A stretch of DNA of 63,931 bases, counting the filler, from Candidatus Nanoarchaeia archaeon (GTDB lineage Archaea; Nanobdellota; Nanobdellia; Woesearchaeales; DATDTY01): assembly GCA_035290625.1 (NCBI GenBank). It is 7 parts of 7 records of this genome, joined end to end, with 100 filler letters (N's around TTAATTAATTAA, not from the genome) between each part and the next. Parts side by side here need not be neighbours in the genome. Positions count along the whole stretch, not along the records: positions 1 to 17,489 come from DATDTY010000033.1; 6 more parts are not named here. The stretch is one strand, 5' to 3'. The position numbers and the translations under genes are program-made. The notes beneath the pieces were generated by a model. That model made no database searches and was not told the origin of the DNA. It saw nothing but the letters and a program-made list of their open reading frames with translations. The first letter of the stretch is position 1. Each line of letters starts with the position of its first letter. This document shows, one piece after another, positions 1-16,289 of this stretch.

Positions 1-123
1 TTGATGAGCTATGCCAAGGCTGTTGCGAAGAGGAAATTTAATTATGATATTGAGCCGATATTGGGGAGGAGCAGGCTATTGGCAGATGTGAGCAACCAAG
101 CAAAGCTTGGAAGGTATCTTTGA
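1..123 (+). CDS. 3' end of a gene truncated by the window start; C-terminus resembles a PCNA-binding PIP box
   Basis: Frame 1 is open to TGA at 121-123 and ends ...SNQAKLGRYL (QxxLxxY pattern). Confidence 0.45.
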   Translation: MMSYAKAVAKRKFNYDIEPILGRSRLLADVSNQAKLGRYL

Positions 124-128
124 AATGT

Positions 129-294
129 TTATTGAAAATTCGGGGTTTAAGACGCGGGCTTTAGCCCGAATTTTCAATCCACAAAAATCCGAGGATTTTT
201 GGGACGGAAAATTGCTTTTCAATTTTCCTGTCCCGAAAACCGCGCGATCAAAAACCCCGACCTTTAGGTCGGGGATTAGTGCGGTTTTCGTTAT
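129..294. mobile_element. Short palindromic non-autonomous element (IS200/IS605-end or REP-like), copy 1
   Basis: Hairpins GAAAATTCGGG..CCCGAATTTTC and CGAAAACCGC..CCCCGACCTTTAGGTCGGGG..GCGGTTTTCG; TTAT at both ends; near-identical copy at 15287-15400. Confidence 0.7.
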
Positions 295-389
295 CTGGAA
301 ATTCATAATTCGCTATTTTGTGGAGCAGGACTATCATTTCGGTGTTGCAGGCAACTCCTAACTCTATGAAAAAAACTCATAAATAGCTT

Positions 390-2219
390 ATGGAAATAGT
401 TTTAAATAATGCGTTACCTCTGCCTTCATCTATGGAAAAAGTAAGCCTAAATAAGGCAACTCTGGGCAATCTTGCAATCCTGCGTGCGAATTCAGACAAG
501 CCTGTGAACGATCTTGCAGAGATGATTGACGCGGATCCTGATGTTGTTGTTGTGATGTTGAATTTATTAGGCGTCTCACCCGTCTATGGCCCAGAAGGCA
601 GTATTGTTCCTAAAAAAAGGGTGAGGGGGACTAGTATCACAATCCCCGAGGCAATGAAACAGTTTGGGCTTTCTTATAATCAAGTCTATGATGCAATTCT
701 TGCAGGAGAACTGCCTGTTCAAAGGCCTGAAACGATGACAGATTCTTATCATCTATCTCCTGAAGATGCTAAGGGTGTGCTTGCAAGCATTAAAAATGGA
801 GGCATAAAGCCAAGAAGGGAGCTAAGGTCGGAGAGGATACGGAGAGAGCGAGAGCTTTCTTTCCCTGAACGCGGCTCAAGCCCTGAGAGGCGCTTTCTTA
901 ACTACTTCTGCCAGGTGCCCCTGCTTACGGCAAAGGAAGAGCATGAGCTGCTTATGCCGGTTAGGGCAGGGGATGAGGCGGCTGTGGATGATTTGGGTGA
1001 AGCCAATATCAGGCTGGTTTATTCAAAAGTGAAGGCCAATAGGAAGAACTGCATTCTCCTTGACCCAATGGACCTTTTACAAGAAGGGTATATTGGATTA
1101 CACCGCGCCATCTTAAAATTTGATCCTGATAGAATCAACCCACGAACGGGAATGCCTAATCGGCTTTCCACGTATGCTTCCTATTGGGTCGATTACTCAA
1201 TAGACCTAGCGATTAGTACTCAGGACAGGCCAATCAGAATTCCTAGAAAGATCTACGGGCGCAGGTCCAAGCTTGCGGGTTGGATAATCCACTACATTGA
1301 TCAGCATGGTAAAGAGCCAAGTTTTCAGAAAGTCATTGAAGCATTCCCTAAATACCCTTCTGGAGCTCTTAAAGGGGATTTGCAGTTTCTTACATTTACG
1401 CCTGCAGGCCCCGCATTCAATTTTGAATCCCTTCTCAATCTTGATGTCGTTGTCAACGAAGAAGGAACACTCAAGCTTGAAGACGTTCTTGCGGATATGA
1501 AAACGCCATGGCCTTCTGAGGAAGCCATGAATGCTGAGGAACTAGCCAAGGCACGTAGGCTTGTGAGCAGGCTTAATGTTCCTGAGCAATCAAAAAATAT
1601 ATTCCGTATGCTTACCGGCTTGGAGGATGGGTGTGATTATACCCTGAAAGAAGTGGGGGAAATGTTTGGAGTACCGGAAGCTCGCGTTATCAAACTCCAT
1701 CGGCAACTACTGGATATGATTGATGATTTGCAAAAGCCAGGCGATTCCCTTATAAGCACATACCGCGCCCAGATGTTGCATCAAATCTCTGAAATATTTT
1801 ATCAAGCTAAAAATCTTGGTCCTAAGTACAACAGAATTTACCTCATTAAATGCGGGTATCTTGACGGCGATACTTATTCCAACCGAACCTTAGCAAATTC
1901 TCACTCCGTTACTATAAACTGCATTAAGAGTCAAATGACCAGGCGGTCTATCTTTCTTAGGAAAAATGGCATCTACTATGATGGAAGAATCCATTTTTCA
2001 ACGCCACAACTCGAACATGCACTCGATAAGGTGGCAATACCTGATATCCATAAACAATGGTACAGGCAGCATTGTGGACTTAATGGGCGGGGCATCTGCT
2101 ATTCAGCTGACGCTCTCGCACGGGAAGACAACGCCTCAAAAGGTATTGTCCACCATGCACTCTGCGAAGCCAGGCAGGCGGTTCGCCAGCAGATGATAAA
2201 TGATTTGGTCAAAGGATGA
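390..2219 (+). CDS. Sigma-70 family (RpoD/RpoS-like) protein with N-terminal HTH(s) and extra C-terminal region-4-like modules
   Basis: PLLTAKEE (region 1.2); ANIRLV, DLLQEGYIGL..AILKFDP, STYASYWV, RPIRIP (region 2); YTLKEVGEMFGV..ARV (region 4). Confidence 0.85.
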   Translation: MEIVLNNALPLPSSMEKVSLNKATLGNLAILRANSDKPVNDLAEMIDADPDVVVVMLNLLGVSPVYGPEGSIVPKKRVRGTSITIPEAMKQFGLSYNQVYDAILAGELPVQRPETMTDSYHLSPEDAKGVLASIKNGGIKPRRELRSERIRRERELSFPERGSSPERRFLNYFCQVPLLTAKEEHELLMPVRAGDEAAVDDLGEANIRLVYSKVKANRKNCILLDPMDLLQEGYIGLHRAILKFDPDRINPRTGMPNRLSTYASYWVDYSIDLAISTQDRPIRIPRKIYGRRSKLAGWIIHYIDQHGKEPSFQKVIEAFPKYPSGALKGDLQFLTFTPAGPAFNFESLLNLDVVVNEEGTLKLEDVLADMKTPWPSEEAMNAEELAKARRLVSRLNVPEQSKNIFRMLTGLEDGCDYTLKEVGEMFGVPEARVIKLHRQLLDMIDDLQKPGDSLISTYRAQMLHQISEIFYQAKNLGPKYNRIYLIKCGYLDGDTYSNRTLANSHSVTINCIKSQMTRRSIFLRKNGIYYDGRIHFSTPQLEHALDKVAIPDIHKQWYRQHCGLNGRGICYSADALAREDNASKGIVHHALCEARQAVRQQMINDLVKG

Positions 2220-2314
2220 GCAATTGAGAATACTGGTCTCGCCTCTGGTTATGTATCTAGGCTCTCTGTTCTCCCCATTAAACATTTAAATACCAGCAGC
2301 AACTCTTTCCTTCC

Positions 2315-4081
2315 ATGAATGCTGACGAACTGAGGAAGAAATACTTTACTTTTTTCAGGGGAAAGAATCACGCATTGATCCCTTCTTCGTCGCTTGTGCC
2401 TGAGCACGATCCAACCGTATTGTTCACAACAGCAGGGATGCAGCCTCTGGTTCCTTATCTGACGGGGCAGAAGCACCCTTTGGGAAGGCGGCTTGTTAAT
2501 GTGCAGAAATGCATACGGACAGGAGATATTGACGAGGTTGGAGACAATTTCCACCTGACTTTTTTTGAGATGCTCGGGAACTGGTCATTGGGAGATTATT
2601 TCAAGCAAGAGGCGATCAGCTGGAGCTGGGAGTTTCTGAGAGGCAAGGAGTGGCTTGGCCTGCCAAAAGAGAAGATTGCGGTCTCTGTGTTTAAAGGAGA
2701 CAAGGATGCTCCGTTTGACAAGGAATCTTATGAAATCTGGAGATCACTTGGTGTTCCTGAAGAGAGGATAGCAAAGCTTGGAAAGGAAGACAACTGGTGG
2801 GGGCCTGTGGGAGAGGCAGGGCCCTGCGGGCCTGATACTGAGATGTTCTTCTGGACAGGAAGCGGAAAGGCTCCTTTGAAATTTGATCCCAGAGACAAGA
2901 GATGGGCTGAGATATGGAATGATGTCTTCATGGAGTATGAGAAGAAGAAGGATGGAAGCGTTGTTCCTCTTGCCCAGAGGAATGTTGACACAGGAATGGG
3001 TGTTGAGAGGGTTGTTACGAGCCTGAACGGAAAGCAATCCGTTTTTGAAACCGAGCTTTTTATCCCCCTGATTGACAACCTCAAGCTGCTCTCAGGGATT
3101 GCAGATCCTGATGAATTCCAGGAAAGATCCTTCCGCATTATTGCTGATCATCTCAGGGCAGCAGTGTTTATCTTGGGAGATGAACGGGGGGTTGTTCCAA
3201 GCAATGTGGATCAGGGCTACATCCTCAGACGCTTTATCAGAAGGGCTGTCAGGCATGGAAATCTCCTTGGAATATCCCGGGGATTCACCAAAGAGGCAGG
3301 GGCGCTGGTTGTTGATATGTTTTCGAATACTTATCCTGAATTAAAAAAGAAAAAACAATCCATCCTGAATGAGCTGATGAAGGAAGAGAGACAGTTCAGG
3401 CAGACTCTTGAGAAAGGGCTCCGTCAGTTTGGGAGGTTTGTCAAGGACAAGAAGGAACTTATTTCAGGGCGTGAAGCATTCCTGCTTTTTCAAAGCTATG
3501 GATTTCCGATTGAGATGACTGTTGAGCTTGCAAAAGAAAAAGGGCTGAAGGTGGACGAGAATGGCTTTTCTGAGGACTTTGAGAAGCATAAGGACCTCTC
3601 CAGGCGGGGAGCTGAGCAGAAGTTCAAGGGAGGGCTGGCTGACACTTCAGCGAATACTGTCAAATTGCATACTGCGACCCATCTCCTGAATGAGGCGTTA
3701 CGGATGGTTGTTGATGAGGGTATTGTGCAGAAAGGGTCGAACATCACTCCTGAACGGTTGCGTTTTGACTTCAACCTTGGGCGGAAGCTCACCAAGGATG
3801 AGATTAAGAAAGTTGAAGAGCTTGTGAACAGGAAAATACAAGAGGCAATCCCTGTTGAACGCAAGGAGATGCCTTTTGAGAAGGCAAAAAAATTAGGCTG
3901 CCAGATGCAATTTGGGGAGAGTTATGGGGATCGGGTCTCGGTCTATTTTATTGGTGACTTCTCTAAGGAGTTTTGCGGCGGGCCTCATGTGACCAATACG
4001 TCAGAGCTCGGAAGCTTCAAGATTGTCAGCGAAGAAGGGATTGGAAAGGGTGTGCGCAGGATTAAGGCAACTGTTCGCTGA
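2315..4081 (+). CDS. alaS: Alanine--tRNA ligase (short form without the C-Ala domain)
   Basis: LFTTAGMQ, HLTFFEMLGNWS, GPCGPDTE, DTGMGVER, HTATHLL and CGGPHV motifs. Confidence 0.97.
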   Translation: MNADELRKKYFTFFRGKNHALIPSSSLVPEHDPTVLFTTAGMQPLVPYLTGQKHPLGRRLVNVQKCIRTGDIDEVGDNFHLTFFEMLGNWSLGDYFKQEAISWSWEFLRGKEWLGLPKEKIAVSVFKGDKDAPFDKESYEIWRSLGVPEERIAKLGKEDNWWGPVGEAGPCGPDTEMFFWTGSGKAPLKFDPRDKRWAEIWNDVFMEYEKKKDGSVVPLAQRNVDTGMGVERVVTSLNGKQSVFETELFIPLIDNLKLLSGIADPDEFQERSFRIIADHLRAAVFILGDERGVVPSNVDQGYILRRFIRRAVRHGNLLGISRGFTKEAGALVVDMFSNTYPELKKKKQSILNELMKEERQFRQTLEKGLRQFGRFVKDKKELISGREAFLLFQSYGFPIEMTVELAKEKGLKVDENGFSEDFEKHKDLSRRGAEQKFKGGLADTSANTVKLHTATHLLNEALRMVVDEGIVQKGSNITPERLRFDFNLGRKLTKDEIKKVEELVNRKIQEAIPVERKEMPFEKAKKLGCQMQFGESYGDRVSVYFIGDFSKEFCGGPHVTNTSELGSFKIVSEEGIGKGVRRIKATVR

Positions 4082-4703
4082 TGGTGAAAATCTTCTGGAT
4101 CGTGTCTGCCTGAGCATCGTACACCACGAGGTGCTGGGGATACTTCACCAGCAGTTGGCCTGGCGTTACATCATTGAAGTATGAGGGGTATTGCGCCTTC
4201 AAACCGATCAGAGACTCGTTGCTTATCACACCGATGGCAGGAGTGATCTGCCTTAAGTCCCCAAGCTCAGCGTGGCTGTTGAGCCTTTGAAGGATCGCAT
4301 TCGCTGCAGCTTCCTGCGTGCTTATAATTCTTGCAACTGATCCTGTCCGGGCATCATAGATAAAGATGGCATTCGGATACTCGATGATAATCTCTCCAAG
4401 ATGGGCATTTGTGACTCCAGCAATCTGCTGCTGGAGTTCTGCGATGTTTTGCTCATTGATTTGGATAATCGCCAGGGGATTCACATTCCTGTACTGCTCC
4501 AATCCTTGGATAGAAGTGACCTGATTGAGGAATTCCTGCACTTCCTGCGCTTGCTGGCTGGTTGCTGCGCCAGTGATGCTGTTCTGCGGAGCGGCTTTGA
4601 TACTCACAAGGTTATAGACAGAAATCCCCAGGCTTGCAATGACGAGTATGCCGAGGATTAAGGCTGTATTTTGCGACACTATTATCTGCCTTTCTTTTGC
4701 CAT
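4062..4703 (-). CDS. Membrane-anchored hypothetical protein with an internally duplicated domain
   Basis: N-terminal TM; two similar ~55-aa segments (GEIIIEYPNAIFIYDA / GQLLVKYPQHLVVYDA). Confidence 0.75.
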   Translation of the reverse strand: MAKERQIIVSQNTALILGILVIASLGISVYNLVSIKAAPQNSITGAATSQQAQEVQEFLNQVTSIQGLEQYRNVNPLAIIQINEQNIAELQQQIAGVTNAHLGEIIIEYPNAIFIYDARTGSVARIISTQEAAANAILQRLNSHAELGDLRQITPAIGVISNESLIGLKAQYPSYFNDVTPGQLLVKYPQHLVVYDAQADTIQKIFTISEQLP

Positions 4704-4990
4704 TTGCCTTTCCTGCGCTGTTCAAAGGACTCGGAGCAGTGGTCTGAGCAGAACTTCATATCTTCATCGTCAATCTCCTTCTCCACCACAGAATCTGCAT
4801 CTATAAGTATCTTCCCGCAGTTTCTGCATTTTGCGCCAGAGCCGGCGTTTGCCGCGCCTTCCATAAACCCTTCTTCCAAATCAGATATTTCTGAATCTTC
4901 AACAAGCTTTTCCCTGCCTTCTTTAGTGTAGACGTCCTCTTCTCTCTGATTGTCTTCCATCTCGAATTCCTTCCTGTCGGATGATTTCAT
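4682..4990 (-). CDS. Small acidic protein with a TRASH/MYM-like zinc ribbon
   Basis: CRNC...FCSDHC; purine-rich SD-like sequence upstream. Confidence 0.75.
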   Translation of the reverse strand: MKSSDRKEFEMEDNQREEDVYTKEGREKLVEDSEISDLEEGFMEGAANAGSGAKCRNCGKILIDADSVVEKEIDDEDMKFCSDHCSESFEQRRKGKWQKKGR

Positions 4991-5043
4991 GTTTCCCCCT
5001 CCTGTTCAGCAAAGAACTCTCCTTTTTATACTTTTGTATGGGC

Positions 5044-5206
5044 CGGCTCATTGAAATGTGATGCAATGCCCTTTGTGAGCCATTTGAACAGAGAGCAGAG
5101 CAACGACAAGGGGGTCGTCCCATACGGGGAATGCCGTTCAACAGCCGAAACAGTACATGGTGAACTTGGCATTGCCGAACGAAGTGAGAAACTTTTCAAT
5201 GAGCCA
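5044..5206. mobile_element. Nested-hairpin MITE-like element, copy A, at the tRNA-Val 3' end
   Basis: TIR GGCTCATTGAAA/TTTCAATGAGCC; flanks GTATGGGC (5036-5043) and GTATGGGT (5207-5214); core GACAAGGGGGTCGTCCCATACGGGGAATG. Confidence 0.75.
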
Positions 5207-5209
5207 GTA

Positions 5210-5282
5210 TGGGTCCACCCGGATTCGAACCGGGGACCTTCACCTTGTGAAGGTGATGTCATAACCGCTAGACCATGGACCC
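5210..5282 (-). tRNA. tRNA-Val (anticodon CAC), no intron, CCA not encoded
   Basis: Reverse complement GGGTCCATGGTCTAGCGGTTATGACATCACCTTCACAAGGTGAAGGTCCCCGGTTCGAATCCGGGTGGACCCA folds as a cloverleaf with a GTTCGAATC T-loop. Confidence 0.96.
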
Positions 5283-5414
5283 TTGCATGCCTGTGTTTTA
5301 TGATATGTTTTTAATGTTTTTGTAAAGATCAGACACGAGAAATGAACATCAGAAATCAGAAGGAGGGCCCGGCAATGTTGGGGGGTTGGGTAAGAATCAG
5401 GCGCCAGGCCCTTC

Positions 5415-5831
5415 TTATGAGAGTTTCTTTTTCATGAGTTGAGGAGGTTTTCGCAGCTCTTGGAGCCACATTAATCCTATACGGATCATCTCTTTATTGA
5501 ACCTATCCGAAATCTTGTATGTCTTTTTGTAAAGGTCATAGTCAATGATGCCCATGCTTTTCATGGGAGTCAGGATGCGATCATAAAACTGCCTTTTGTT
5601 GTAGGAAATCCTGACTTTCTTTCCCCAGTATTCGGGCTCGTCTATTGTTGTTATCAGAGTGCCGTCGTGAAGCCTGGTAGCAAAGAGAGACATCTCTGTC
5701 TTTGTCATCTCCCCTTTATTCTCTTTTATGTTTTCTATCAGTAACTTTCCCACAATCTTCTGCTGCTTTGTGGCGAAAATCACTTCATAGATATTGTCGG
5801 GGAGGTTGAACCTGTCAAACAACAATACCAT
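5415..5831 (-). CDS. Hypothetical protein, possibly winged-helix
   Basis: 138-aa ORF with a TATA-like TTTATATA upstream; C-terminal wHTH-like pattern (ILTPMKSMGIIDYD). Confidence 0.7.
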   Translation of the reverse strand: MVLLFDRFNLPDNIYEVIFATKQQKIVGKLLIENIKENKGEMTKTEMSLFATRLHDGTLITTIDEPEYWGKKVRISYNKRQFYDRILTPMKSMGIIDYDLYKKTYKISDRFNKEMIRIGLMWLQELRKPPQLMKKKLS

Positions 5832-5939
5832 GTACCTTAGGGTTAGGTTGAACTAATATATAAATGTTTCTATAATAGATACTAGTATAGAGAAATGTAT
5901 ATTATTGATTCGTATGATTCGTATATATCCTTGGTACCC

Positions 5940-7001
5940 TTATTGGGATTCCTTCTGCCTGAAAAGATACGCAGAGCATCTCATCCTGTCTTTCCAGGTG
6001 TCAATGTCAAGGCTGCAGTGAGGCGGGACCAGAACCATCCTCCCGTGAATCCCTTTCTCCTCCCTGAACATCTGCTCTGCTTCAAGAACAGACCATTTTC
6101 CTGTTCCCAGATCCAGCAATCCCCTGAAACCCTTGCTTTGATACGCCTCTCCCATAATCCTTCTTTTTGAGTACAGCATCGGTATCATGCTGCTTTTCTC
6201 GTCCACTGCATTTACTTGGGCTAGGAACATGTTTCCAGACATGTACATGTCGATATCCCTGCCTGTCAGGATAGTTTCTTTGTCATTCAATGGAATTCCA
6301 AACTTCCTTAGGTTGCCAGGGAGTAAACTTAATGGAAGGAGCAGGGGATGGTCGTTGAACCTCGGAATGCCATACGCTGCAAGGTCTTTCTTGGTAATAA
6401 ATGCCGCAAGATCTTTTCTTGACACAACTGCAGCATACATCTCAACACCTTCTATGCCCCTCTTCTGGGAATTCTCGACAAATATATCAATGTCATCTCC
6501 TGTAACCAAAGGGACATCCCCACTGATAATCAGAAGGTACTCCTGGCTATAGAAAGCCCCATTATGCAGAGCGCTCATTCCCAATTCGATATTCTCCTGA
6601 AGATCAGAGCCTTGCTGCTGGATGTGGATTCCCTTATCTTTCACTGTTCTCTGGATGCGCAGCTTTGGGCCTATGGGATAAATCTCCTCCTTGTTGATAT
6701 ACCTGCTCTGTTGGCATGCCTCAATAACCCTTTCAAGGCTTGTCCCAAGATTCTCCTGAGCTGCCTGCTTTCTCTCTTCCCTGTCCTTCCAAACTGAATG
6801 AAGCATGCTTACTATGCCAAAATGCCTGCTTTCCGGAGGCTTGTCTATTGTCAGCAGTGATTTGTTCCTTCCAATGATGAACTGCTCCCTATAGATCCTG
6901 CCAACCCATTCTTTTTCCTCCTGCTCCTGAGCTTTGGCCGTTCTTCCCTGATTATGGCCTGCGAGGATCAGCGCAGCTAATGACCCCGGTTGGATACCCA
7001 T
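5940..7001 (-). CDS. MobA-like NTP transferase domain protein
   Basis: ALILAG, GRNKSLL, LIISGDVPLVT and C-terminal DIDT motifs. Confidence 0.7.
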   Translation of the reverse strand: MGIQPGSLAALILAGHNQGRTAKAQEQEEKEWVGRIYREQFIIGRNKSLLTIDKPPESRHFGIVSMLHSVWKDREERKQAAQENLGTSLERVIEACQQSRYINKEEIYPIGPKLRIQRTVKDKGIHIQQQGSDLQENIELGMSALHNGAFYSQEYLLIISGDVPLVTGDDIDIFVENSQKRGIEGVEMYAAVVSRKDLAAFITKKDLAAYGIPRFNDHPLLLPLSLLPGNLRKFGIPLNDKETILTGRDIDMYMSGNMFLAQVNAVDEKSSMIPMLYSKRRIMGEAYQSKGFRGLLDLGTGKWSVLEAEQMFREEKGIHGRMVLVPPHCSLDIDTWKDRMRCSAYLFRQKESQ

Positions 7002-7139
7002 CTCTCCCTCTGGAATCTTTCTCCCCTTTTAACTTTTTTCCCTCCTTAAAAACCCCCACCACAAACTTTATATAACAACTGTGCTTTGCAGCCTATAGGT
7101 CATTACCTGTATATTCGAGGACACACATGAGGGGGATGT

Positions 7140-7418
7140 ATGAAGAATACCAAGATATTCAACGTTTTCTTTCGAGAGAAGCCGGCGATGATGCTGATTA
7201 ATCTCAGGAACTCAAAAAGCAACGTCTACGCATCTTCCCTCGCAAAGTCGATCGATTGCACGTATTCCCATGTGGTGAAGATTCTTCAGCAGATGGAGAG
7301 AAATGATCTTATCAGCTTCAACAAAAAGGGCAGATTAAAGCTTCTTACGCTGACAAAGAGGGGAAGCGACATCGCAGATTCAATCGATTCAGTCAGGAAC
7401 TCTCTTTTGACCCGCTAG
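7140..7418 (+). CDS. Winged-helix (MarR-like) transcription regulator
   Basis: SSLAKSIDCTYSHVVKILQQME..GRLKLLTLTKRG; SD GAGGGG and TATA upstream. Confidence 0.85.
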   Translation: MKNTKIFNVFFREKPAMMLINLRNSKSNVYASSLAKSIDCTYSHVVKILQQMERNDLISFNKKGRLKLLTLTKRGSDIADSIDSVRNSLLTR

Positions 7419-8819
7419 CTTGCCCAGCACGTCTCTGGCAGCTTCAAGAAATTCTTTCTCTTTGCCCTGCGGGATGACAGACCCTGCTGCGTAGATATGG
7501 CCGCCAGTGCTGCTGCCATCAACTCTTGATGTGATCTCTTCCATGATGCTCCTGAGGTCGATGGAGCCGTCGCTCTGAAAGCCGGCCCGCCTGATGCTTG
7601 CCTTCAGGGTCTTGTCCGGAGCCTCTGCCATAGAAATAATAATAGTGCCGGGCCTGGTGGTGTTTGATTTTGCGATCATAGATGCTATCGTGCCGATCAT
7701 GGTGCTGAGTATCTCTGTTCCTGCGCTGATGATCATATAGCCCGGATGCTCCTGGACAGCCGCAGTTCCGCGATGCGCCTCAAACCATTGCATGGCAGCA
7801 ATGATCTCCCTTCGGTATTCCAGCAGGTGGCTGATTGCCTGCCTCTTCATCTTCGGATCGCCGAGGCACGCTCCGATTCCCAATGAGGCTTTTCCCATCC
7901 TGCCGCAGGAGTTGAGCAGTGTTGCAAATTCCTTTGCGTCTCTGAGAGGAGATTCTTCTTCCTCCTGCTCGAGGATGTAGATATTGCCAAGGACATCTTC
8001 GGGCTTGGCTTCGCCCCGCCTGGCCAGTACCACGCCTGCTACAAGTGCCTGCATCTCCTCCTGGCTGAGATCAGCCATCTTCTTCCATCCCTTTCCCTTC
8101 TTTGGGCTGATTCCGAGATTATGGAGGAACTGAATTGCGCCTGATTCAGATCCAGAGACACCAGGGATGTAGGGGTCTGTGCTGTACCCAAGGATTTTAT
8201 GGATCGGCCGGGTCTGCATCCCAAACAGCCGAAGACCTTTCTGGACACTTATCTTACCCTGGTTTCTTGCGGTCTCAAGGATGCTGGCGTTGAGCCTTTC
8301 AAAACCGCTATTCTCCTGAGCGTCGCCAATCGCTCCAACAATGGCAAGGTGAGCACATGCCTCGTTCTTCCTGTCCAGAGCCTCAGCAAACATATAAGCA
8401 ACTCCGGCTCCGCTGACTTCCCTTGATCCCTCAATGCCAAACATGTGCGGGTTGATGTGGAGAACCCTGTCGTTGCCGACGCCGGACACTTCATGATGGT
8501 CAAGGATCACAACATCTTTGCTCTTAAGATGCTCCTTCACCTGTTCTATCATCCCTGAGCCAAGGTCTGTAAACGCGATGATTTTGTACTCCTCTTTTGC
8601 GAGCTCTTTGATGAACGTCTCAGTAAGCTGAGGCACGATAGAAATGGCAAAGCCCCTATTTTGGCTCTTCAGCGCATGGATGAGGATTGAGGCTGCGCAG
8701 ATCCCATCGCAGTCAAGGTGCGATATTATCCTGACTGTTTCATTTTTCAGCTCCTGAAATTTTTTTGCAGAATCAGCAATATGCTTGCGAAATGCATCAT
8801 ATTTATCCATCAGCACCAT
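7389..8819 (-). CDS. RecJ-like DHH/DHHA1 phosphoesterase (archaeal exonuclease family)
   Basis: SHLDCDG, TDLGSG, LDHH, GAIGD and GGHIYAAG motifs; lies downstream of rps15 as in many archaea. Confidence 0.92.
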   Translation of the reverse strand: MVLMDKYDAFRKHIADSAKKFQELKNETVRIISHLDCDGICAASILIHALKSQNRGFAISIVPQLTETFIKELAKEEYKIIAFTDLGSGMIEQVKEHLKSKDVVILDHHEVSGVGNDRVLHINPHMFGIEGSREVSGAGVAYMFAEALDRKNEACAHLAIVGAIGDAQENSGFERLNASILETARNQGKISVQKGLRLFGMQTRPIHKILGYSTDPYIPGVSGSESGAIQFLHNLGISPKKGKGWKKMADLSQEEMQALVAGVVLARRGEAKPEDVLGNIYILEQEEEESPLRDAKEFATLLNSCGRMGKASLGIGACLGDPKMKRQAISHLLEYRREIIAAMQWFEAHRGTAAVQEHPGYMIISAGTEILSTMIGTIASMIAKSNTTRPGTIIISMAEAPDKTLKASIRRAGFQSDGSIDLRSIMEEITSRVDGSSTGGHIYAAGSVIPQGKEKEFLEAARDVLGKLAGQKRVPD

Positions 8820-8856
8820 GCACTTTCAGTTATTATATAAAGATATCTTAACCTGC

Positions 8857-9060
8857 GGCTGCGGTGAAAATCTCGCTTCGCGGCTACCGCCAAGTTCGCA
8901 ATTTGCGTCCCTTACTCCTATAATCGACATTCGTCCCCGACGGGGCATCCCCCGACAGCGGAAATCAAAGATTTCCTGGGTTTGCTAACGCAAACAGTCG
9001 ATGCTCTGATCCCAATAATGTTGCTCACAAAGGGCGGCAGCACTGATTTTCACCGAAGCC
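8857..9060. mobile_element. Nested-hairpin MITE-like element, copy B
   Basis: TIR GGCTGCGGTGAAAATC/GATTTTCACCGAAGCC; perfect 9-bp TSD TTAACCTGC (8848-8856, 9061-9069). Confidence 0.88.
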
Positions 9061-9087
9061 TTAACCTGCCAGAATCCACAGAATGCG

Positions 9088-9540
9088 CTACGTGGTGTAC
9101 TGTATCCGCTTGGCGTCAATCTTCCATCCAACCGGAAGCTTTCGGATTTTTTTATAATACTTTATGAGACGCTTTATTTTTGCGTCTGTCAGCTGCAGGC
9201 CCCGCTTGGCAACCATGTCCTTCTTGTTGACTTCAAAATGCTTTCGCAGGGCGTTGCTCCTCTTCATCAGGGCAAAGAGGTCTTCAGGAATCTCCGGAAG
9301 GATCTTCTTTTCCTGGAGTATCCCCGTGATCTTCTTTTTGAGAATTGGGCGGACATCGGGGATTCCGTAGGTGTCTCTCAGGATGAGCCCAATCTGGGAA
9401 GCGGATTTTCCCTCCTTCGCCAGTTTTGCAATAATAATCTCAATCTCTTTTGGCTTATAGCCAAGCCAGGCAGGCTTGGTCCTTTTGACAGGCCTTTTTG
9501 AGCCTGACTTTCCCCGTTTTCTTGAATACATCCTTGCCAT
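9088..9540 (-). CDS. rps15: 30S ribosomal protein S15 (uS15), archaeal type; true start at 9540
   Basis: MARMYSRKRGKSGSKRP, GLILRDTYGIP, IPEDL, RGLQLTDAKIKRLIKYYK. Confidence 0.97.
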   Translation of the reverse strand: MARMYSRKRGKSGSKRPVKRTKPAWLGYKPKEIEIIIAKLAKEGKSASQIGLILRDTYGIPDVRPILKKKITGILQEKKILPEIPEDLFALMKRSNALRKHFEVNKKDMVAKRGLQLTDAKIKRLIKYYKKIRKLPVGWKIDAKRIQYTT

Positions 9541-9637
9541 AGAATACGCATCTCCGGCATATATTCGCTTTCGCCAATATACCCCTTGCGTGCTATTGAG
9601 GAACTTTGGATTGTTTATAAATGTTTCGAGATGGGCT

Positions 9638-9757
9638 GGTTGCCGCCTTTTTTTGCGAGGCTCAACCAACCGAGGCGTCAGCAGCGGAGGGGGTTGTCCC
9701 TTACGGGCGAGGTGCCGCTCTTTGCTGAAAAGATGAAGAGCCGAGCTGGCGGCAACC
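9638..9757. mobile_element. Inner module of the MITE-like family, copy C (no outer TIR)
   Basis: GGTTGCCGCC..GGCGGCAACC inverted ends; almost identical to 11917-12033. Confidence 0.75.
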
Positions 9758-10153
9758 CTCAGCTGATATACTTACTGTGATGCTGTGTGTCTTCATCATC
9801 CTCTTGAGATTGGTGTTAAGCCCGGCTGCAGATTTGGAGGCTTTGGTGGCAAATGTCCTTGAAGAGAGAAATTCTGTTGTCCTTATCACCATTTCATCTG
9901 CGTCTGAAAAATCCCTGTTCGGGACAGCAATCAATGAATCTTGCGCATCTCCGGATTGTATCGCAATCTTCAGCTTGTCCTCCTTTCTCAAGGCTGCCAG
10001 GAATCTCTTCATCTGCTGCAGCTTGAAGTCTGCCTGGATGCCAACTATACAGGTTCCCCTCGGAGTAAGGTGAGAGTCCCGCGTAAACTCCAGCGTTGTT
10101 TTATGGCTTGCCCTGATATTTGGGTGGCCTTGGCAGGTAAATCGGATTTCCAT
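9701..10153 (-). CDS. DUF371 family protein; last ~18 codons derive from the repeat element
   Basis: GHPNIRASHKTTLEFT, RGTCIVG and C-terminal KASKSAAGL motifs. Confidence 0.88.
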   Translation of the reverse strand: MEIRFTCQGHPNIRASHKTTLEFTRDSHLTPRGTCIVGIQADFKLQQMKRFLAALRKEDKLKIAIQSGDAQDSLIAVPNRDFSDADEMVIRTTEFLSSRTFATKASKSAAGLNTNLKRMMKTHSITVSISAEGCRQLGSSSFQQRAAPRP

Positions 10154-10157
10154 CGAA

Positions 10158-11852
10158 TCATTTAGCCAGCTGCTTTACTTCTTCGTATGCTTGCCTCATC
10201 TTCCTGTAGAAAATGGCTTTCGCCTTGCTTGTGAAGTCCATCTCAAGAAGCTCTGCGTATGCCTTCTTTGCTTTTGGGTAGGATGCTGCGATGGCTTTTT
10301 TGTCTCGCCTCTGTATGGAATGCTCCAGCTTACGGAGCCATTCATTGAACTCAGCGACTTTGCCCCTCTTTGGGTCTAATGAAGCTGCAGCCTGGCGCTC
10401 TCCAATCCCCTGGCCCTTGATTTCCTGATCCTTTATCTCCTGGCGCAGGAGGCTTTTTGACAGGATGTCGCGGTGTTTCTTAACCAGCTCAACTTTCTTT
10501 CTAATGACTGCTTTTCCTGCCTGCCTGCTTAATGACTCTATACTTCTCGCTGCTGCTTCAAGCGAAGGCATGAGCCTGTCTACCTGCCTGATATCTGCCT
10601 GGCTGATTGCGTGCTCGCTTTGGCTCAGGTACTGATTAAAGGCCTTGAGGTACTTGTTAAACCTCTGCCGTTGCCGTTCCTCGGGGGACTTCAGGATGCG
10701 GAGCTTTCCAAGCCATCCAATGGCTGTCCGCATGATCCAGACAGCAATAATGAAGAGAACTACAACGCTTGCGATCAGTGGAAGGAGAGGAACAGCTTGC
10801 CTGGCTGCTGCTGCAATCTGCACTAAAGGCAATACTCCGCTGTAGGGGAATACAGCAACCACAGCGATGAAGAGCCATAGCGTAATGATCCATATCCAGA
10901 GCCATTCCTTCTGGATATCCTCTTTGGCTTGCTTTGAGGATACTCTGTACTGGTTTATAGAGGTATATGCCCATAACCCGACGAAGAAATAAATGTATGC
11001 TGCCACAGCAAAGAGGGCGATTGCCGCAACAAATGCAGTAAGCCAGCACCAGGAGGATTCCACGCATATCTGCTTGAGTGTTGAGAGCTGGGATGCAGCT
11101 CCTACGTCAAGGAGAGCGCTTGCTGTTCCAACTGAGCTGCCATAGGTTGCGATGGCGGAAAAGACATACTCTCCTCTGGCGAGATTATCGGGGATATGGA
11201 CTCTCTTGAAGAAAGATGCCTGTGTCTTGACAACGACGCTTTCACTTTCTGTGATAATTGTGTTGCTTGCGGTGTCTTTGAGCTGGTACTCCATCTGGAC
11301 ATTTGCCTGGGAGAGGCCTAGGAGATTAAAGAGGCGGACCTCAATGGTGAAGTCTCCGCCCTGAGGGACTTCTCTGCCGGCAGAAACCGGGTTGAGGTTC
11401 ATGTCAAAGAGGACGTCTTTGCTCTCAACCTCTATAACTACAGGAATGGACTTGGGCTGATTGCCTGAGATGATAAGCTTGCCCACATACACTCCTGGGG
11501 AGAACGATGTTCCAGCTTCCTCATCCTGCGGAGAGAACCGAAGGAAAAGGATTTTCGTCTGGCCGGGCTGCAGGAGGAATTGCTGCTCAGGGATTTTTAT
11601 CAGGCCTTCAGCCCCTGCTGCCTGTATGCTTATGTGTTCAGCATTCAGGCCCCGGTTACTAATCCTGACAGGCCTGGAAATAAACTCACCCTGTTTTACC
11701 ACTACTTTGATAAGAATCTGATCAACATCAATTGATGCCCCTGATGCTCCTGCCGCAGCTTCTTGCTTTGGAATCTGCTGCTGCAGAAGGATGCCGCTTG
11801 AGAGAAGGATAGCTACCAGCACTACAATCCCTATATGCTTAAGGGGATTCAT
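10158..11852 (-). CDS. Surface/membrane protein with two Ig-like domains, internal TMs and a helical cytoplasmic tail
   Basis: Signal/TM; PGVYVGKL and VLFDM motifs shared with the neighbouring paralogue; several hydrophobic segments. Confidence 0.8.
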   Translation of the reverse strand: MNPLKHIGIVVLVAILLSSGILLQQQIPKQEAAAGASGASIDVDQILIKVVVKQGEFISRPVRISNRGLNAEHISIQAAGAEGLIKIPEQQFLLQPGQTKILFLRFSPQDEEAGTSFSPGVYVGKLIISGNQPKSIPVVIEVESKDVLFDMNLNPVSAGREVPQGGDFTIEVRLFNLLGLSQANVQMEYQLKDTASNTIITESESVVVKTQASFFKRVHIPDNLARGEYVFSAIATYGSSVGTASALLDVGAASQLSTLKQICVESSWCWLTAFVAAIALFAVAAYIYFFVGLWAYTSINQYRVSSKQAKEDIQKEWLWIWIITLWLFIAVVAVFPYSGVLPLVQIAAAARQAVPLLPLIASVVVLFIIAVWIMRTAIGWLGKLRILKSPEERQRQRFNKYLKAFNQYLSQSEHAISQADIRQVDRLMPSLEAAARSIESLSRQAGKAVIRKKVELVKKHRDILSKSLLRQEIKDQEIKGQGIGERQAAASLDPKRGKVAEFNEWLRKLEHSIQRRDKKAIAASYPKAKKAYAELLEMDFTSKAKAIFYRKMRQAYEEVKQLAK

Positions 11853-11856
11853 TGTA

Positions 11857-13215
11857 TCATTTTAGGAATCTTCTTTTATATAGCTTTGCATGGCTGCGGC
11901 TCAGTAGAACGTCTGCGTTGCCGCCTTTTTTGCGAGGCTCAACCAACCGAGGCGTCAGCAGCGGAGGGGGTTGTCCCTTACGGGCGAGGTGCCGCTCTTT
12001 GCTGAAAAGATGAAGAGCCAAGCTGGCGGCAACCGGCGGCTTGTGAGCGAGTGAGAAGGGGCTTACTCGCAAGCCACGCCGAGACTTTCTACTGAGCCCA
12101 TGGCTGCGTTTTGCAGGCGGTGCAGCTGGCATTTTCCTGAAGCGGCTTCTCAACAGGAGCAGCAGCAGGATGAGCGCCACAACTACGCCAATTACATTTG
12201 CAAATGAAAATGGCTGCGGCTCTGTGATTGTGAACGTCTGGCTGGAAACTGCAAACCCGTTCTTGTAGAGGATCTCGACGATTGCAACATAAGCTCCTTT
12301 CTCCAGGTTTTGTGTGTTGTACTCTTTTCTGTACGAGAGCTGATTCTGAACCTTGAGGCTTTCGTTTGATTGGAAGAGGACATTTCCATCAAGGTCTTTG
12401 ATGATGTAAGTTGCCTGAACATCTGTGCCTCTCTCTTTGAGGTTGAAGAGGGTAATCTGCGCATAGAGACTCCTGCCCTGAGGTATCTCATGGTTGGGAA
12501 TGTCAAGGCTGACGTCGAAGATAATATCGGCTGTTTTTACTTCAATGGTCACTGGAATCTCTTTTGATATCCCTTCTGATGAGAGCGTGAGCTTTCCAAC
12601 ATAGACTCCTGGCTGTTGGCCTGATGAGGCCTGCAGTGTAATTTGGGCAGAACTTCCCTCTGCAATAGAGAGGCTTGAATCTGATGAGAGCAGGGAGGCC
12701 GCTTCTCCTGATATATCGATGCTGAGATCAAGGTCAGTGTTGCCGGTGTTTGTGACTGAAATTTGCTTTTCATCTTCTGCTCCAAGAACAAGAGTGAAGG
12801 TAATGCTTCCTGGAGAGGCTGAGAACCCCGGGTGGGGCCATTCTATGGTTGCGTTGCTCCCTCCTCCACCTCCTCCACCACCGCCTCCTCCTGCTGATGC
12901 TGCGGCTCCTGCAGGGCAGGATGCCAGGCATGTTCCTGAGCAGCAGGCTCCTGACATGCAGTCCCTGTTCGCTTCGCATGGGTCTCCGTTTGCGTACTGC
13001 AGGCGGAAGAAGAAGCCGAAGAAGCTTCTGAAGTTTGCTGAAGACGCGTTTCCTGAGACCGGCGTTACAGCAAATGAGGATTGGTAATTGCTGCTTGAGG
13101 AGTTTGTTGAGCCAGGTGAAGGGTCTGCATCGAAGACAAAGTTTGAGTTGCTCATTGTCTGTGCAGCAGCTAATGGGAACAGCAATGCTGCGATGATATA
13201 ATAGAGGGTTCTCAT
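11857..13215 (-). CDS. Secreted/membrane-anchored Ig-like protein with a Gly linker; cytoplasmic tail carries an in-frame MITE
   Basis: Signal peptide, Cys motif, poly-Gly, PGVYVGKL, C-terminal TM; RSH duplicated around the insert. Confidence 0.8.
   Translation of the reverse strand: MRTLYYIIAALLFPLAAAQTMSNSNFVFDADPSPGSTNSSSSNYQSSFAVTPVSGNASSANFRSFFGFFFRLQYANGDPCEANRDCMSGACCSGTCLASCPAGAAASAGGGGGGGGGGGSNATIEWPHPGFSASPGSITFTLVLGAEDEKQISVTNTGNTDLDLSIDISGEAASLLSSDSSLSIAEGSSAQITLQASSGQQPGVYVGKLTLSSEGISKEIPVTIEVKTADIIFDVSLDIPNHEIPQGRSLYAQITLFNLKERGTDVQATYIIKDLDGNVLFQSNESLKVQNQLSYRKEYNTQNLEKGAYVAIVEILYKNGFAVSSQTFTITEPQPFSFANVIGVVVALILLLLLLRSRFRKMPAAPPAKRSHGLSRKSRRGLRVSPFSLAHKPPVAASLALHLFSKERHLARKGQPPPLLTPRLVEPRKKGGNADVLLSRSHAKLYKRRFLK
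11898..12098. mobile_element. Nested-hairpin MITE-like element, copy D, inside a CDS
   Basis: TIR GGCTCAGTAGAA/TTCTACTGAGCC; perfect 9-bp TSD CATGGCTGC (11889-11897, 12099-12107). Confidence 0.9.
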
Positions 13216-14357
13216 GCCTGAGCACCTTCACCAAGCCTACTACCAGAGCCCTCGTAGCCTGTTCTATTCTTATATGTTCTATTCTTATATATTGCGTGCA
13301 GTGGAAAAAATTCATAATAGCTATTTTCGTCGAACCACGCGCATTTGAATGATTTGATGTCGAGTTTTGTCCTTGACGCTAGGCTGAGTGCGTAGAGCGT
13401 GAGCTGTTCAATTGGGTTGCAGCTTTTTGCTTCGGGCTTGTAATCTAAGATGTGGATAAGGCTGTTTCTTACCTGGAGGATGTCGATATGGCCTGTGATG
13501 GGGGTTTTTGCATTGCTGAGGTTTAGGGTGAATCCTCTTTTCTGGAAGTATATGATATCATCTTTTGTGAGATAGACCGGGATTTCTGTTGCAATGGTTG
13601 TTGAGTCGTTGGTTATGAAGAAGCCCTGGAGCGCTTTATGGCGCTGAGCGTTGCTCCTTGCGAGGTTGAGGGCCAGCTTTGCCAGCTTGTTTGCTGCGTT
13701 GGCCTTTGAGATGTGAATGATATTTAGGTGCGAGAACTTGATTTGAGATGCCCTTTTTTGGCTGCTTAATTGCGGCGTGTCCAGCCTAGAATGTCTTCTG
13801 TATTCTTTAAAGATATGATGAGGGAACTTGTTTGTTGGGATTTTGCTGAGGTATGATTTGAGAGGGTCGTAGAATCTGCTGGTATTGGTGAATTGGTTGT
13901 TGTATTTGGGGTGGTGGAAGAGGACTTCGAGCTTTGCCTTGTGGATTTGGAATGTGTACGGCAGGTTGTTGTGGAGAAGGGGGTATGACTCTATAATCTG
14001 GCCTGGGGAGAAGATCTTTTTTGCTTGGCCTCTTAGTTTGCTGAATGCGCAGATATTCTTGTATTCGCTTAGCCATTTGGCGATGGTTGACGGGGGGAGC
14101 TTTGTTGCGGCCTGCTTTTCTATGATGTTTGATGTATCTTTCAGGCTGTGGCCAAGGTTGTAGGTAGAGATTGACTTTAGGATGATGCCTATGGGATAGG
14201 TTTTGTTTTTTGATTGGCTCTGTGTGAAGACGGATTTGCAGACTTTGCATTGATATTTTTGGATGGCCTGGAATTTGTTTTTTGCGAAGCCTCTTTTGAC
14301 GGTTTGAGTGGAGCTACAGTTTTGGCAGGTGATTGTTTCTTTTGTTTTCTTTTGCAT
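13212..14357 (-). CDS. IS1 InsA-like zinc finger/HTH fused to a PD-(D/E)XK (RecB/Cas4-like) nuclease
   Basis: CQNC..VKRG..QKYQCKVC..F; TEIPV, TGHIDIL, ILDYK, EQLTLYA. Confidence 0.82.
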   Translation of the reverse strand: MQKKTKETITCQNCSSTQTVKRGFAKNKFQAIQKYQCKVCKSVFTQSQSKNKTYPIGIILKSISTYNLGHSLKDTSNIIEKQAATKLPPSTIAKWLSEYKNICAFSKLRGQAKKIFSPGQIIESYPLLHNNLPYTFQIHKAKLEVLFHHPKYNNQFTNTSRFYDPLKSYLSKIPTNKFPHHIFKEYRRHSRLDTPQLSSQKRASQIKFSHLNIIHISKANAANKLAKLALNLARSNAQRHKALQGFFITNDSTTIATEIPVYLTKDDIIYFQKRGFTLNLSNAKTPITGHIDILQVRNSLIHILDYKPEAKSCNPIEQLTLYALSLASRTKLDIKSFKCAWFDENSYYEFFPLHAIYKNRTYKNRTGYEGSGSRLGEGAQA

Positions 14358-14362
14358 TTTTT

Positions 14363-14508
14363 ATGCACCTGATTTGAGGCGGGTTTTCATTGGGTTATGC
14401 GCTGGATTTTGGAAGTTTGTGCGCACCTGATTTGGGCAGGCTTCATGCACCTGATTTGGGATGGGGTTTTCATTGGGCTGGGTTGGTGGGAACGTTTTGC
14501 GCAGGGGG
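14363..14508. repeat. Cluster of degenerate ATGCACCTGATTTG repeats (array scaffold)
   Basis: About four units; 14446-14508 is identical to 15442-15504. Confidence 0.85.
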
Positions 14509-14571
14509 CTGGTAACGAGATTGCTTGCACTCCATAATCTTTATATACCTCAATTGATTATTGCGCGTATA

Positions 14572-14700
14572 ATGAAATCGTTGGCTGATACTAAGGAGTG
14601 GAAAAAATTGAGGAAAAAGATAGAGGAAGCTCGGAAGGATCCTAAATTCAGAGCTTTTATAAGGAAGTTTATTGAAGCAACGTCTCATACTCATAGATAA
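14572..14700 (+). CDS. 42-aa microprotein convergent with PIN gene 1 (putative antitoxin)
   Basis: MKSLADTKEWKKLRKKIEEARKDPKFRAFIRKFIEATSHTHR; TTTATATA ~30 bp upstream; homologous to 16481-16612. Confidence 0.7.
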   Translation: MKSLADTKEWKKLRKKIEEARKDPKFRAFIRKFIEATSHTHR

Positions 14701-15212
14701 GCCTCCTTGAATTTTTGGTAGGGGATAAATTCTGGAGTTCTCATCTGATAATCCTTATCGACCCTTTCATATGCTTTAATGGCTTTTATGCCCAGCATAC
14801 TCTTTGTGTCGTGAGAGACAACAATATCCAGCTTATGAAGGGAAGCGCAGGCGATTATTTTAAAGTCATTTATTATATCATCATAACCGCAACCTCCTTT
14901 TAACTTATTATATTCTCCATAATACCTATTGGCGATCAGTTCTACCAAATCTGTAATCTTTAAAATGTGATTGTCTTTTCTAACAAATAGGTCATAGATA
15001 CTCAAGACCAGTTTTCGCTTACTTTCTGCGCCAATCCTCTCTTTTTTAGCAACCGCCCTCAGCTCATTCCTTATCAGCCTGTTGCCGTAAATCACAAATC
15101 TTTCCGGGATGCCTTTAACTATTTTAGGGACCACATCAATATCCTCTATCAATCTTCCATAAACGCTCGTATCCAGGATGATCCTTTTTTGTTGTTTATT
15201 TTGGATTTTCAT
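14691..15212 (-). CDS. PIN-domain ribonuclease 1 (probable start MKIQNK at 15212)
   Basis: IILDTSVY, RNEL, NDFKIIACA, IVVSHD acidic tetrad. Confidence 0.85.
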   Translation of the reverse strand: MKIQNKQQKRIILDTSVYGRLIEDIDVVPKIVKGIPERFVIYGNRLIRNELRAVAKKERIGAESKRKLVLSIYDLFVRKDNHILKITDLVELIANRYYGEYNKLKGGCGYDDIINDFKIIACASLHKLDIVVSHDTKSMLGIKAIKAYERVDKDYQMRTPEFIPYQKFKEAYL

Positions 15213-15286
15213 AGGCTGCCCTCGTTGAAAATGCAATTAACTGCAAAAAATACATTTGATCATCGATTTTCAGTTCGTCAGAGTTT

Positions 15287-15400
15287 TTATTGAAAATTCG
15301 GGGTTTAATACCCCGGGCTTTAGCCCGAATTTTCAATCCCGAAAACCGCACGATCAAAAACCCCGACCTTTAGGTCGGGGATTAGTGCGGTTTTCGTTAT
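15287..15400. mobile_element. Short palindromic element, copy 2 (lacks a 52-bp inner segment present in copy 1)
   Basis: Matches 129-294; the paralogous leader at 16261-16286 shows the empty site. Confidence 0.8.
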
Positions 15401-15598
15401 CATACTCTTTAGGGTTATGCATTGGATGTTTTCTTCGATTGTGCACCTGATTTGGGATGGGGTTTTCATTGGGCTGGGTTGGTGGGAACGTTTTGCGCAG
15501 GGGGGGGGCTTAGCCCAAGCGGGCAATTACCTTGCCTCCTGCCGGTGTGTTGAGTCAAACATAATCTTTATATATTCAGATGGTTTATTAGTTCTCTT

Positions 15599-16190: not shown

Positions 16191-16289
16191 ATGAGTTTTC
16201 CTTTGCTGAAAATGTAATAAACTGTAAAAAAATACATTCGATCATTGATTTTCGATGAGTCAGAGTTTTTACCATGCTCTTTAGGGTGG

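Follow-up and report, generated by a model that had tools for sequence, protein, structure and literature searches.

A sigma-70 gene on an archaeal contig

We analyzed a 63,931-nucleotide stretch of DNA (hereafter, the window) from the genome of Candidatus Nanoarchaeia archaeon (assembly GCA_035290625.1), in which an open reading frame (ORF) at positions 390-2219 encodes a bacterial-type sigma-70 homolog with additional helix-turn-helix (HTH) modules on both sides of its sigma core. Textbooks separate bacterial from archaeal transcription initiation by the use of sigma factors in the former and of TBP and TFB in the latter. The host genome comprises 1.37 Mb on 84 contigs and, according to marker genes, is 100% complete and 1.14% contaminated. 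Positions 1-17489 of the window represent the end of contig C33 (101,970 bases) and are the sole single-contig part carrying the gene of interest; the remainder comes from contigs C34, C37, C38, C44, C47, and C65, joined by 528 N in total. The features of the gene, in window coordinates and with the basis of each assignment, are as follows:

368-386, + strand: A-rich stretch and TATA-like box CATAAATAG (read from the sequence)
390-2219, + strand: sigma-70 family ORF, 609 amino acids (frame intact)
447-575, + strand: three-helix module, residues 20-62, acidic, isoelectric point (pI) 4.2 (AlphaFold2, AF2)
630-800, + strand: HTH_17/excisionase-like HTH, residues 81-137 (Pfam, PADLOC, and Atlas structure search)
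801-884, + strand: basic linker, residues 138-165, pI 11.5, with an invariant R..R..RSE (paralog alignment)
885-1274, + strand: sigma regions 1.2-2.4 (domain sigma-2), residues 166-295 (NCBIfam, SigA, and structure alignments)
1275-1541, + strand: sigma region 3 and 3.2 linker, residues 296-384 (continuous RpoD/SigA alignment)
1542-1730, + strand: sigma region 4, residues 385-447, with the degenerate recognition helix GVPEARVIKLH (Pfam r4 and consensus comparison)
1731-1970, + strand: long helix and second region-4-like HTH, residues 448-527 (hhalign)
1971-2216, + strand: beta-hairpin (G.Y.DGRIHF) and third region-4-like domain, residues 528-609 (VIA-align and Foldseek)

The true start of the gene is probably the ATG at 432 (M15), which would give a protein of 595 amino acids, because M15 lines up with the first residue of its paralogs and the predicted structure shows no order over residues 1-15 (predicted local distance difference test score [pLDDT] <50 in the AF2 model). 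The TATA-like box CATAAATAG occupies 378-386, immediately 5' of ATG-390 (4-12 nt), and the interval 368-386 probably serves as the archaeal promoter of the gene; the transcript would then begin downstream of ATG-390. Boxes are also found upstream of the paralogs on contigs C28 and C70 (TTTATAG / TTTTTATA).

The genomic setting is archaeal. Near the sigma gene, C33 carries alaS, tRNA-Val, a DHH/DHH-CID (GAN-type) nuclease, rpS15 with an S13_N domain, and DUF371, and the S13_N domain of this rpS15 is an archaeal/eukaryotic one. The contigs that host other sigma genes of this genome contain an exosome/proteasome/Pop5 operon, TYW3, OapB/OapC, TrmB, and FtsZ. The genome encodes an archaeal RpoA1 (1198 bits, cut-off 1042), together with one TBP gene and one TFB gene, and the A' subunit of its polymerase is 78% identical to Candidatus Woesearchaeota / Nanoarchaeota proteins. 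No bacterial rpoC in the genome exceeded its cut-off; the model reached 275.8 of the 963.5 bits needed, on the archaeal A' gene.

A 10-kb stretch that reaches from the sigma gene to rps15 can be found in 20 listed public sequencing runs (16 of them with at least half of the sampled words) from 11 groundwater/soil studies; no RNA data are among these 20 runs. Contigs from four runs of four studies cover positions 266-9678 as a tiling of even depth, no piece differing by more than one letter, and one piece in each of two runs spans the whole sigma gene into alaS. The initial annotation of this DNA had made its reading depend on there being no coverage break or chimeric join between the sigma gene and rps15, and none was seen in these contigs, which, as contigs and not reads, lend support but not proof. 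As judged from sequence, the gene is therefore a native chromosomal gene of a Woesearchaeota-type DPANN archaeon, as had been proposed, and not a mis-binned one, because it shares C33 with archaeal genes, the other sigma genes likewise have archaeal genes on their contigs, and the tiling across four runs is even.

The sigma-70 core

In the NCBIfam comparison, residues 163-437 align with positions 98-349 (of 370) of the RpoD model PRK09210 (E = 2.1e-28), and the RpoS and cyanobacterial RpoD-type models match comparably. The protein passes the cut-off of the sigma-70 superfamily model TIGR02937 (48.8 vs. 42.9 bits) and misses every equivalog cut-off widely (PRK09210, 99.7 vs. 572 bits; RpoD_Cterm, 88.5 vs. 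354). Its Pfam scores fall slightly short of the gathering thresholds for both Sigma70_r4 (22.5 vs. 24.1) and Sigma70_r2 (21.6 vs. 24), and Pfam r3 and r1_2 gave no match to it at E <= 0.01. Two relatives described below, C28 and P0002, pass Pfam r2, and C28 scores 56.2 bits with r4. The best match in a sequence search of the PDB was Staphylococcus aureus SigA (8x6f_E; E = 4.1e-25, query residues 162-441 vs. chain residues 95-351). An AF2 model of the whole protein, built from a 102-row alignment, has a mean pLDDT of 86.7, and Foldseek superposed it on the sigmaS/sigmaA chains of holoenzymes over ~290-300 columns, with a template modeling (TM) score by target of 0.63-0.66. Since the NCBIfam, Pfam, PDB sequence, and structure matches agree, the sigma core is genuine. 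The claim that this is a bacterial-type sigma-70 homolog is thus borne out by the domain models, the RpoD/SigA alignment, and the predicted fold alike.

The core also differs from that of a canonical sigma. A 7-residue insert separates regions 2.2 and 2.3, and region 3, whose helices are predicted by AF2, contains an 11-residue beta-hairpin insert (strands 334-343). In bacteria, sigma region 2 grips the beta-prime clamp helices of the polymerase, regions 2.3-2.4 melt and read the -10 element, and region 4.2 reads the -35 element. We compared the corresponding motifs with the consensus of 92 other sigma sequences and found that region 2.3-2.4 reads STYASYWVDYSIDLAI (consensus STYATWWIRQAITRAI) and region 4.2 reads GVPEARVIKLH (consensus GVTRERIRQIE). 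In the paralog C28, both motifs are nearly canonical.

Extra modules on both sides of the core

Approximately 150 extra residues precede the sigma core. The first of these form a three-helix module (helices 25-33, 39-46, and 50-59; pLDDT ~90) for which no family match was found. We considered whether it might be sigma region 1.1 and rejected this, since hhalign assigned it a probability of only 0.4% against 60 bacterial RpoD/SigA sequences. The second module is read as an HTH from several signals that are individually weak but agree. Pfam HTH_17 (PF12728) matches residues 84-110 (E = 7.6e-4; 20.1 bits, gathering threshold 27), with 20.4 bits in P0002 and 12.8 bits in the more distant relative P0025. 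In addition, the PADLOC model mad1 matches this HTH with an E-value of 6.4e-4 in the target and 3.7e-10 in P0002, and 8 of the 10 rows returned by an Atlas structure search are HTH_17 clusters, with low TM scores (0.36-0.44). An invariant NGG (residues 136-138) then precedes the basic linker, which runs into region 1.2.

A further ~165 residues follow the core. We modeled residues 448-609 alone, from 3 sequences, and obtained a pLDDT of 88.2 and a predicted TM score of 0.78. Within this part, residues 477-527 are basic (pI 10) and match the protein's own region 4 in register (hhalign probability 88.8%); this second HTH also shows weak structural matches to LuxR-type HTHs (VIA-align Z 5.5-6.1). 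For the third segment, hhalign gave a probability of 24.7% against the same region 4. By structure, residues 537-609 best match solved sigma region-4 domains (VIA-align Z 8.9-8.2; root-mean-square deviation [rmsd] 1.4-2.6 A), the top rows being sigma32, Taq sigmaA, SigR region 4, and SigL; SigR region 4 superposes on 65 of 65 residues at an rmsd of 1.8 A. A local Foldseek match of this domain is sigmaA domain 4 (4g6d_A; TM by target 0.77, rmsd 1.8 A). Foldseek returned nothing at E <= 0.001 for the C-terminal model, only weak and local rows, and Pfam gave no match to residues 445-609 at E <= 1. Given the structural Z values for the third segment and the hhalign result for the second, the region-4-like nature of both is well supported, by one kind of support each. 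The extra HTH modules that had been noted before and after the core are therefore supported: one HTH_17-like module at the N terminus and two region-4-like ones at the C terminus.

Six sigma-70 genes in one genome

The initial annotation dealt with a single gene, but the genome holds six sigma-70 genes, of which three are of the long type and three are canonical and RpoD-like. The long type comprises the target, C28 (43% identical to the target over residues 25-607), and C70 (47%). The C70 gene is truncated by the end of its 2.3-kb contig, and P0002, which belongs to a cluster of 8 member sequences, is a full-length, 594-amino-acid relative of C70 from other samples. Two of the canonical genes lie in tandem on C31 (12297-15090, L014) and the third on C9 (5127-6716, L015). 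All three pass Pfam r2, r3, and r4, and the core of the first C31 protein (C31a) is ~49-51% identical to bacterial RpoD/SigA proteins (Bacillales, Omnitrophica, and Caldatribacteria).

Conservation among the three full-length long proteins is uneven. The best-conserved segments are the HTH_17 module (59-61% identity), the basic linker (60-78%), regions 1.2-2.1 (63-75%), and the beta-hairpin that separates the two C-terminal domains (70-90%). The most diverged parts are region 4 (33-48%) and the C-terminal HTHs (27-38%), and, together with the first N-terminal module, these least-conserved segments span 24-48%.

As for the surroundings of the canonical genes, the tandem pair on C31 lies ~9 kb from the archaeal exosome/proteasome/Pop5 operon, and one canonical gene adjoins a DOT1-like methyltransferase and a MutS-like gene. 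Three consecutive sigma genes also occur in another genome of the same phylum (G194).

Distribution and phylogeny

With the aim of placing the gene within its phylum, we used the target as a divergent query against 401 genomes, each at least 90% complete, at E <= 1e-5. Sigma matches were found in 77 of the 401 (a count that includes the host, G000, as well as G242 and G332), and only in the host did matches span the extra modules. Domain scanning of 13 homologs from 11 of these loci revealed regions 2 and 4 above the Pfam cut-offs in 12 (the weaker thirteenth had them too), region 1.2 in 9, region 3 in 9, and region 1.1 in 2. One of the 13 has HTH_3 and HTH_31 matches after region 4, both below the cut-off.

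A search of 1.84 billion representatives with the long-family profile yielded 70,286 sigma proteins, among which, beyond the input row P0003, only four clusters carry extra modules (P0025, P0026, P0027, and P0028). P0025 (433 amino acids, metagenomic) combines the N-terminal module with a canonical sigma and has no C-terminal extension; P0028 is a fragment carrying the N-terminal module; and P0027 is the target's own N terminus with a frameshift, from one other assembly. P0026 (312 amino acids, from a 1170-base metagenomic contig) joins a canonical, bacterial-like region 3-4 to a near-exact copy of the C28 C-terminal extension, with the junction at the shared RERIRQIE motif; it is possibly an assembly chimera or a natural recombinant. 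A search of a genome-contig collection with the whole protein and with the N-terminal-module alignment returned no relative, the target's own genome perhaps being excluded from that collection.

We also considered a phage origin of the extra modules and rejected it: 56 phage records match the protein, none covers 80% of the query, and all 56 are below 60% identity; the 12 listed of these match the sigma core only, at 27-35% identity.

The phylogeny of 46 sigma cores (258 columns, IQ-TREE; 14 unnamed rows carry no taxonomy) recovers the long family as one clade (99/97), within which P0025 is sister to the four members bearing the C-terminal extension (100/99). This clade nests with three other archaeal sequences, which sit on long branches (96/91). 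Archaeal sigmas as a whole are not monophyletic and are interleaved with bacterial RpoD, with 8 changes, at least 4 of which are forced by well-supported branches; this interleaving points to several transfers or to an unresolved backbone. Within the long clade, the end branch of the target is the longest, at 1.09, compared with 0.29 for C28 and 0.11-0.15 for C70/P0002.

A sigma-derived regulator and the alternatives

We propose, giving it roughly even chances, that the target is a fast-evolving, sigma-derived, multi-HTH protein that regulates transcription by sequence-specific DNA binding. In this proposal, a bacterial RpoD-like sigma ancestor would have been rebuilt within a narrow lineage into a protein with the module order three-helix module, HTH_17-like HTH, basic linker, sigma regions 1.2-4, and two region-4-like HTHs, with expression driven by a promoter of archaeal type. 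Thanks to the added HTH modules, it could hold DNA without a bacterial polymerase spacing the domains. The HTH_17 module, the basic linker, and sigma regions 1.2-2.2 may hold a partner common to all paralogs, whereas the helices that diverge quickly (2.4, 4.2, and the C-terminal HTHs) would direct each paralog to DNA targets of its own. The analysis shows the gene and its homology, the order of its domains, its archaeal host, the set of paralogs, and how conservation is distributed among them. We infer the DNA binding, the regulatory role, and the common partner of the long sigmas from the pattern described above: a constant scaffold, diverging DNA-reading helices, and added HTHs fit paralogous sigma-derived DNA-binding regulators. 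The suggestion that the sigma had been retooled as a DNA-binding regulator likewise fits the drifted promoter-reading helices.

Several observations weigh against this proposal. Region 2.2 persists in the target (DLLQEGYIGL vs. consensus DLIQEGNLGL), as does the acidic pattern of region 3.2. In bacteria, regions 2.1-2.2 and 3.2 matter solely within the polymerase, and it is not obvious why a mere DNA-binding protein would retain them. Moreover, in the three canonical paralogs the RpoD motifs that melt the -10 element and read the -35 element are almost perfectly retained, which argues that some archaeal sigmas, at least, still act in a sigma-like way. The extra domains, as predicted, rest on models from 3-5 sequences and on sub-threshold family matches, and a VIA-align Z of 8-9 is middling for helical folds. 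Lastly, C70 may stem either from a recent duplication with very fast divergence of the sigma gene or from a related organism in the same bin. Under either origin, the sigma gene evolves much faster than its neighbor, since between C28:16659-17479 and C70:1515-2335 the DNA of the polX 5' end and spacer shows 87% identity (715/821), compared with 68% in DNA and 56% in protein for the sigma coding parts.

The main rival, which we regard as unlikely, is that the target still works as a specificity factor in the manner of a sigma, but with the archaeal RNA polymerase, the only polymerase that the conserved sigma-2 surface could grip here. Here, sigma-2 would dock on the Rpo1N clamp coiled-coil, and the HTHs would read promoters, supplementing or bypassing the single TBP/TFB pair. 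The clamp coiled-coil of archaeal Rpo1N and the bacterial beta-prime clamp helices, where sigma binds, are homologs. In keeping with such a role, no part of the sigma core is better kept across the paralogs than regions 1.2-2.2 (63-75%), the canonical paralogs have RpoD-type -10/-35 motifs along with the closeness of C31a to bacterial primary sigmas, and sigma homologs are widely retained in the phylum (77 of 401 genomes). The single TBP and single TFB further suggest that the genome is without the usual paralog-based promoter switching of archaea. The Rpo1N coiled-coil segment is both present and invariant, which cuts two ways: the docking site is there, but its invariance in 43 Woesearchaeota-type sequences means that there is no visible adaptation in sigma-bearing lineages. 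The residues of the target that would read -10 and -35 elements are degenerate, and a scan of the 17.5 kb of C33 within the window, a weak test, revealed no enrichment of sigma-70-consensus promoters (15 found vs. 24.1 +/- 4.3 in shuffles). A complex prediction for sigma-2 (residues 160-300) with host Rpo1N 1-372 scored 0.00 and, being without controls, speaks neither for nor against binding.

A broader version of this idea, which strikes us as a little more doubtful on the sequence evidence, is that Woesearchaeota may use a hybrid mode of initiation, in which sigma-70 paralogs, the multi-HTH form among them, would dock via sigma-2 on the archaeal clamp and confer promoter specificity as subunits, alongside TBP/TFB or replacing them, with the HTH_17 module and the linker of the long family as an added anchor to the polymerase or to DNA.

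That the target is a decaying, functionless relic of a transferred sigma gene seems improbable to us. Its long branch, the longest in the clade, its degenerate reading helices, and the frameshifted copy P0027 in one other assembly would be expected of a relic, but the 609-codon frame is intact, its domains are all predicted by AF2 to fold with high confidence, blocks are strongly conserved although the paralogs are only 43-47% identical overall, and the stretch is 100% identical across runs of several studies.

We see very little room for the view that the protein is an effector or decoy directed against the bacterial RNA polymerase of a bacterial partner or host, or of a virus, a version of which the initial annotation had raised as its more speculative option. 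The genome has no bacterial polymerase, and yet residues of the core-binding type persist; in addition, PMC12647753 reports rpoS-like genes on DPANN viruses and one prophage. However, the neighbors are housekeeping genes (alaS, tRNA-Val, the GAN-type nuclease, and rpS15), the probable promoter is of archaeal type, none of the phage records covers the extra modules, and those listed match the sigma core only; no support for action on a partner's polymerase was found, though no search was aimed at an export signal or a secretion system.

Finally, membership in an MzaA-kind anti-virus defense system, in which a sigma-70 protein carries an N-terminal extension, can be set aside as the least credible reading: MzaA is matched by NCBIfam (E = 1.3e-19) and PADLOC (E = 4.1e-13), and the N-terminal HTH matches mad1 of the MADS system, but only sigma-core positions of MzaA are covered (412-648 of 683 in PADLOC and 425-689 of 726 in NCBIfam), the NCBIfam score is 70.5 bits against a cut-off of 800, all six sigma genes match MzaA, with the canonical ones matching best, and none of 8 neighbors matches an Mza family, the sole defense-like match being a Csa3/CARF-like winged-HTH regulator 2 kb upstream.

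Neighboring genes and an upstream repeat

The alaS gene adjoining the sigma gene (2315-4081, + strand) is of the short bacterial type (NF002436, 824.6 bits vs. a cut-off of 529) and falls far under the archaeal alaS model (240.6 vs. 744.7), making it another bacterial-type gene in this archaeon. At window position 9648, inside the opening codons of the rps15 frame (TTG start), part of the depth is one base short in all four runs; the actual start of rps15 probably lies further 3', with S13_N starting at residue 44. Genes for PIN-domain, MazF/PemK-like, and Fic-domain proteins are dispersed over the window (14691-15236, 21974-22300, and 56477-57388).

A repeat of ~167 bases, with two G+C hairpins followed by T runs (CCCCGACCTAAAGGTCGGGG, CGGGCTTTAGCCCG), occupies window positions 128-294, ~100 bases 5' of the sigma gene. 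The genome contains at least 8 copies of 91-99% identity, further ones being at C28:3715-3881, C55:6212-6378, and C67:13116-13285, and shorter forms at window 15286-15401 (C33:99767-99882), C33:75534-75655, C67:496-611, and C84:319-432. In the four metagenome runs, the depth over window positions 1-334 is 2 to 7x that of the sigma gene (335-2338), with several different flanks. The element looks like a miniature inverted-repeat transposable element (MITE) or a structured intergenic repeat.

Comparison with known systems

The presence of a sigma factor in an archaeon, which the initial annotation had treated as unheard of, is not new, because DPANN sigma-70 genes were reported in 2021. That report describes them (fam00359) as "particularly prevalent in Woesearchaeota," excludes mis-binning, and finds no anti-sigma factors (Castelle et al. 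2021, Front Microbiol 12:660052, PMC8204110). That intact RpoD-like genes exist in many Woesearchaeota without a bacterial polymerase is a published and unexplained puzzle. The present genome sharpens it by holding six such genes, by the graded series that they form, and by a pattern in which the part that grips the polymerase is retained and the parts that read DNA drift apart. If the long proteins are plain DNA-binding regulators, they would represent a general initiation factor reused as a regulator after inter-domain transfer. As far as we searched the published literature, neither the multi-HTH architecture and its intermediate P0025 nor the six-gene family and its pattern of conservation has been described before; the supplements of PMC8204110 may list such proteins.

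Like the fam00359 proteins, the target is a bacterial-type sigma-70 on a Woesearchaeota-type archaeal contig, in a genome with TBP and TFB, and no anti-sigma factor was noticed; the passage on fam00359 in PMC8204110 mentions neither extra HTHs, nor region-4 repeats, nor a six-gene family, all of which apply to the target.

Residues ~81-137 resemble the excisionase/MerR-type HTH_17 (PF12728) and mad1 proteins in both fold and sequence, with a Pfam score under the threshold. Unlike in those proteins, the module is fused to a sigma, and no recombinase or defense partner lies nearby.

In common with RpoD, SigA, and RpoS, the target has regions 1.2, 2, and 4 and, by continuous alignment, probably 3 in the same order, and its predicted fold superposes on holoenzyme sigma. 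It differs from RpoD/SigA in having no detected region 1.1, in the inserts in regions 2 and 3, and in the degenerate 2.4 and 4.2 helices; the setting differs as well, the host genome being without a bacterial core polymerase.

The closest comparison is with P0025, in which the three-helix module, the HTH_17-like HTH, the NGGIK motif, and the basic linker are fused to a sigma core just as in the target. Unlike the target, P0025 retains a canonical region 4.2 (GVTRERIRQIE) and ends there. Collectively, these sigmas form a series that runs from near-canonical RpoD-like proteins, through an intermediate with the N-terminal module only, to the multi-HTH form encoded by the target gene.

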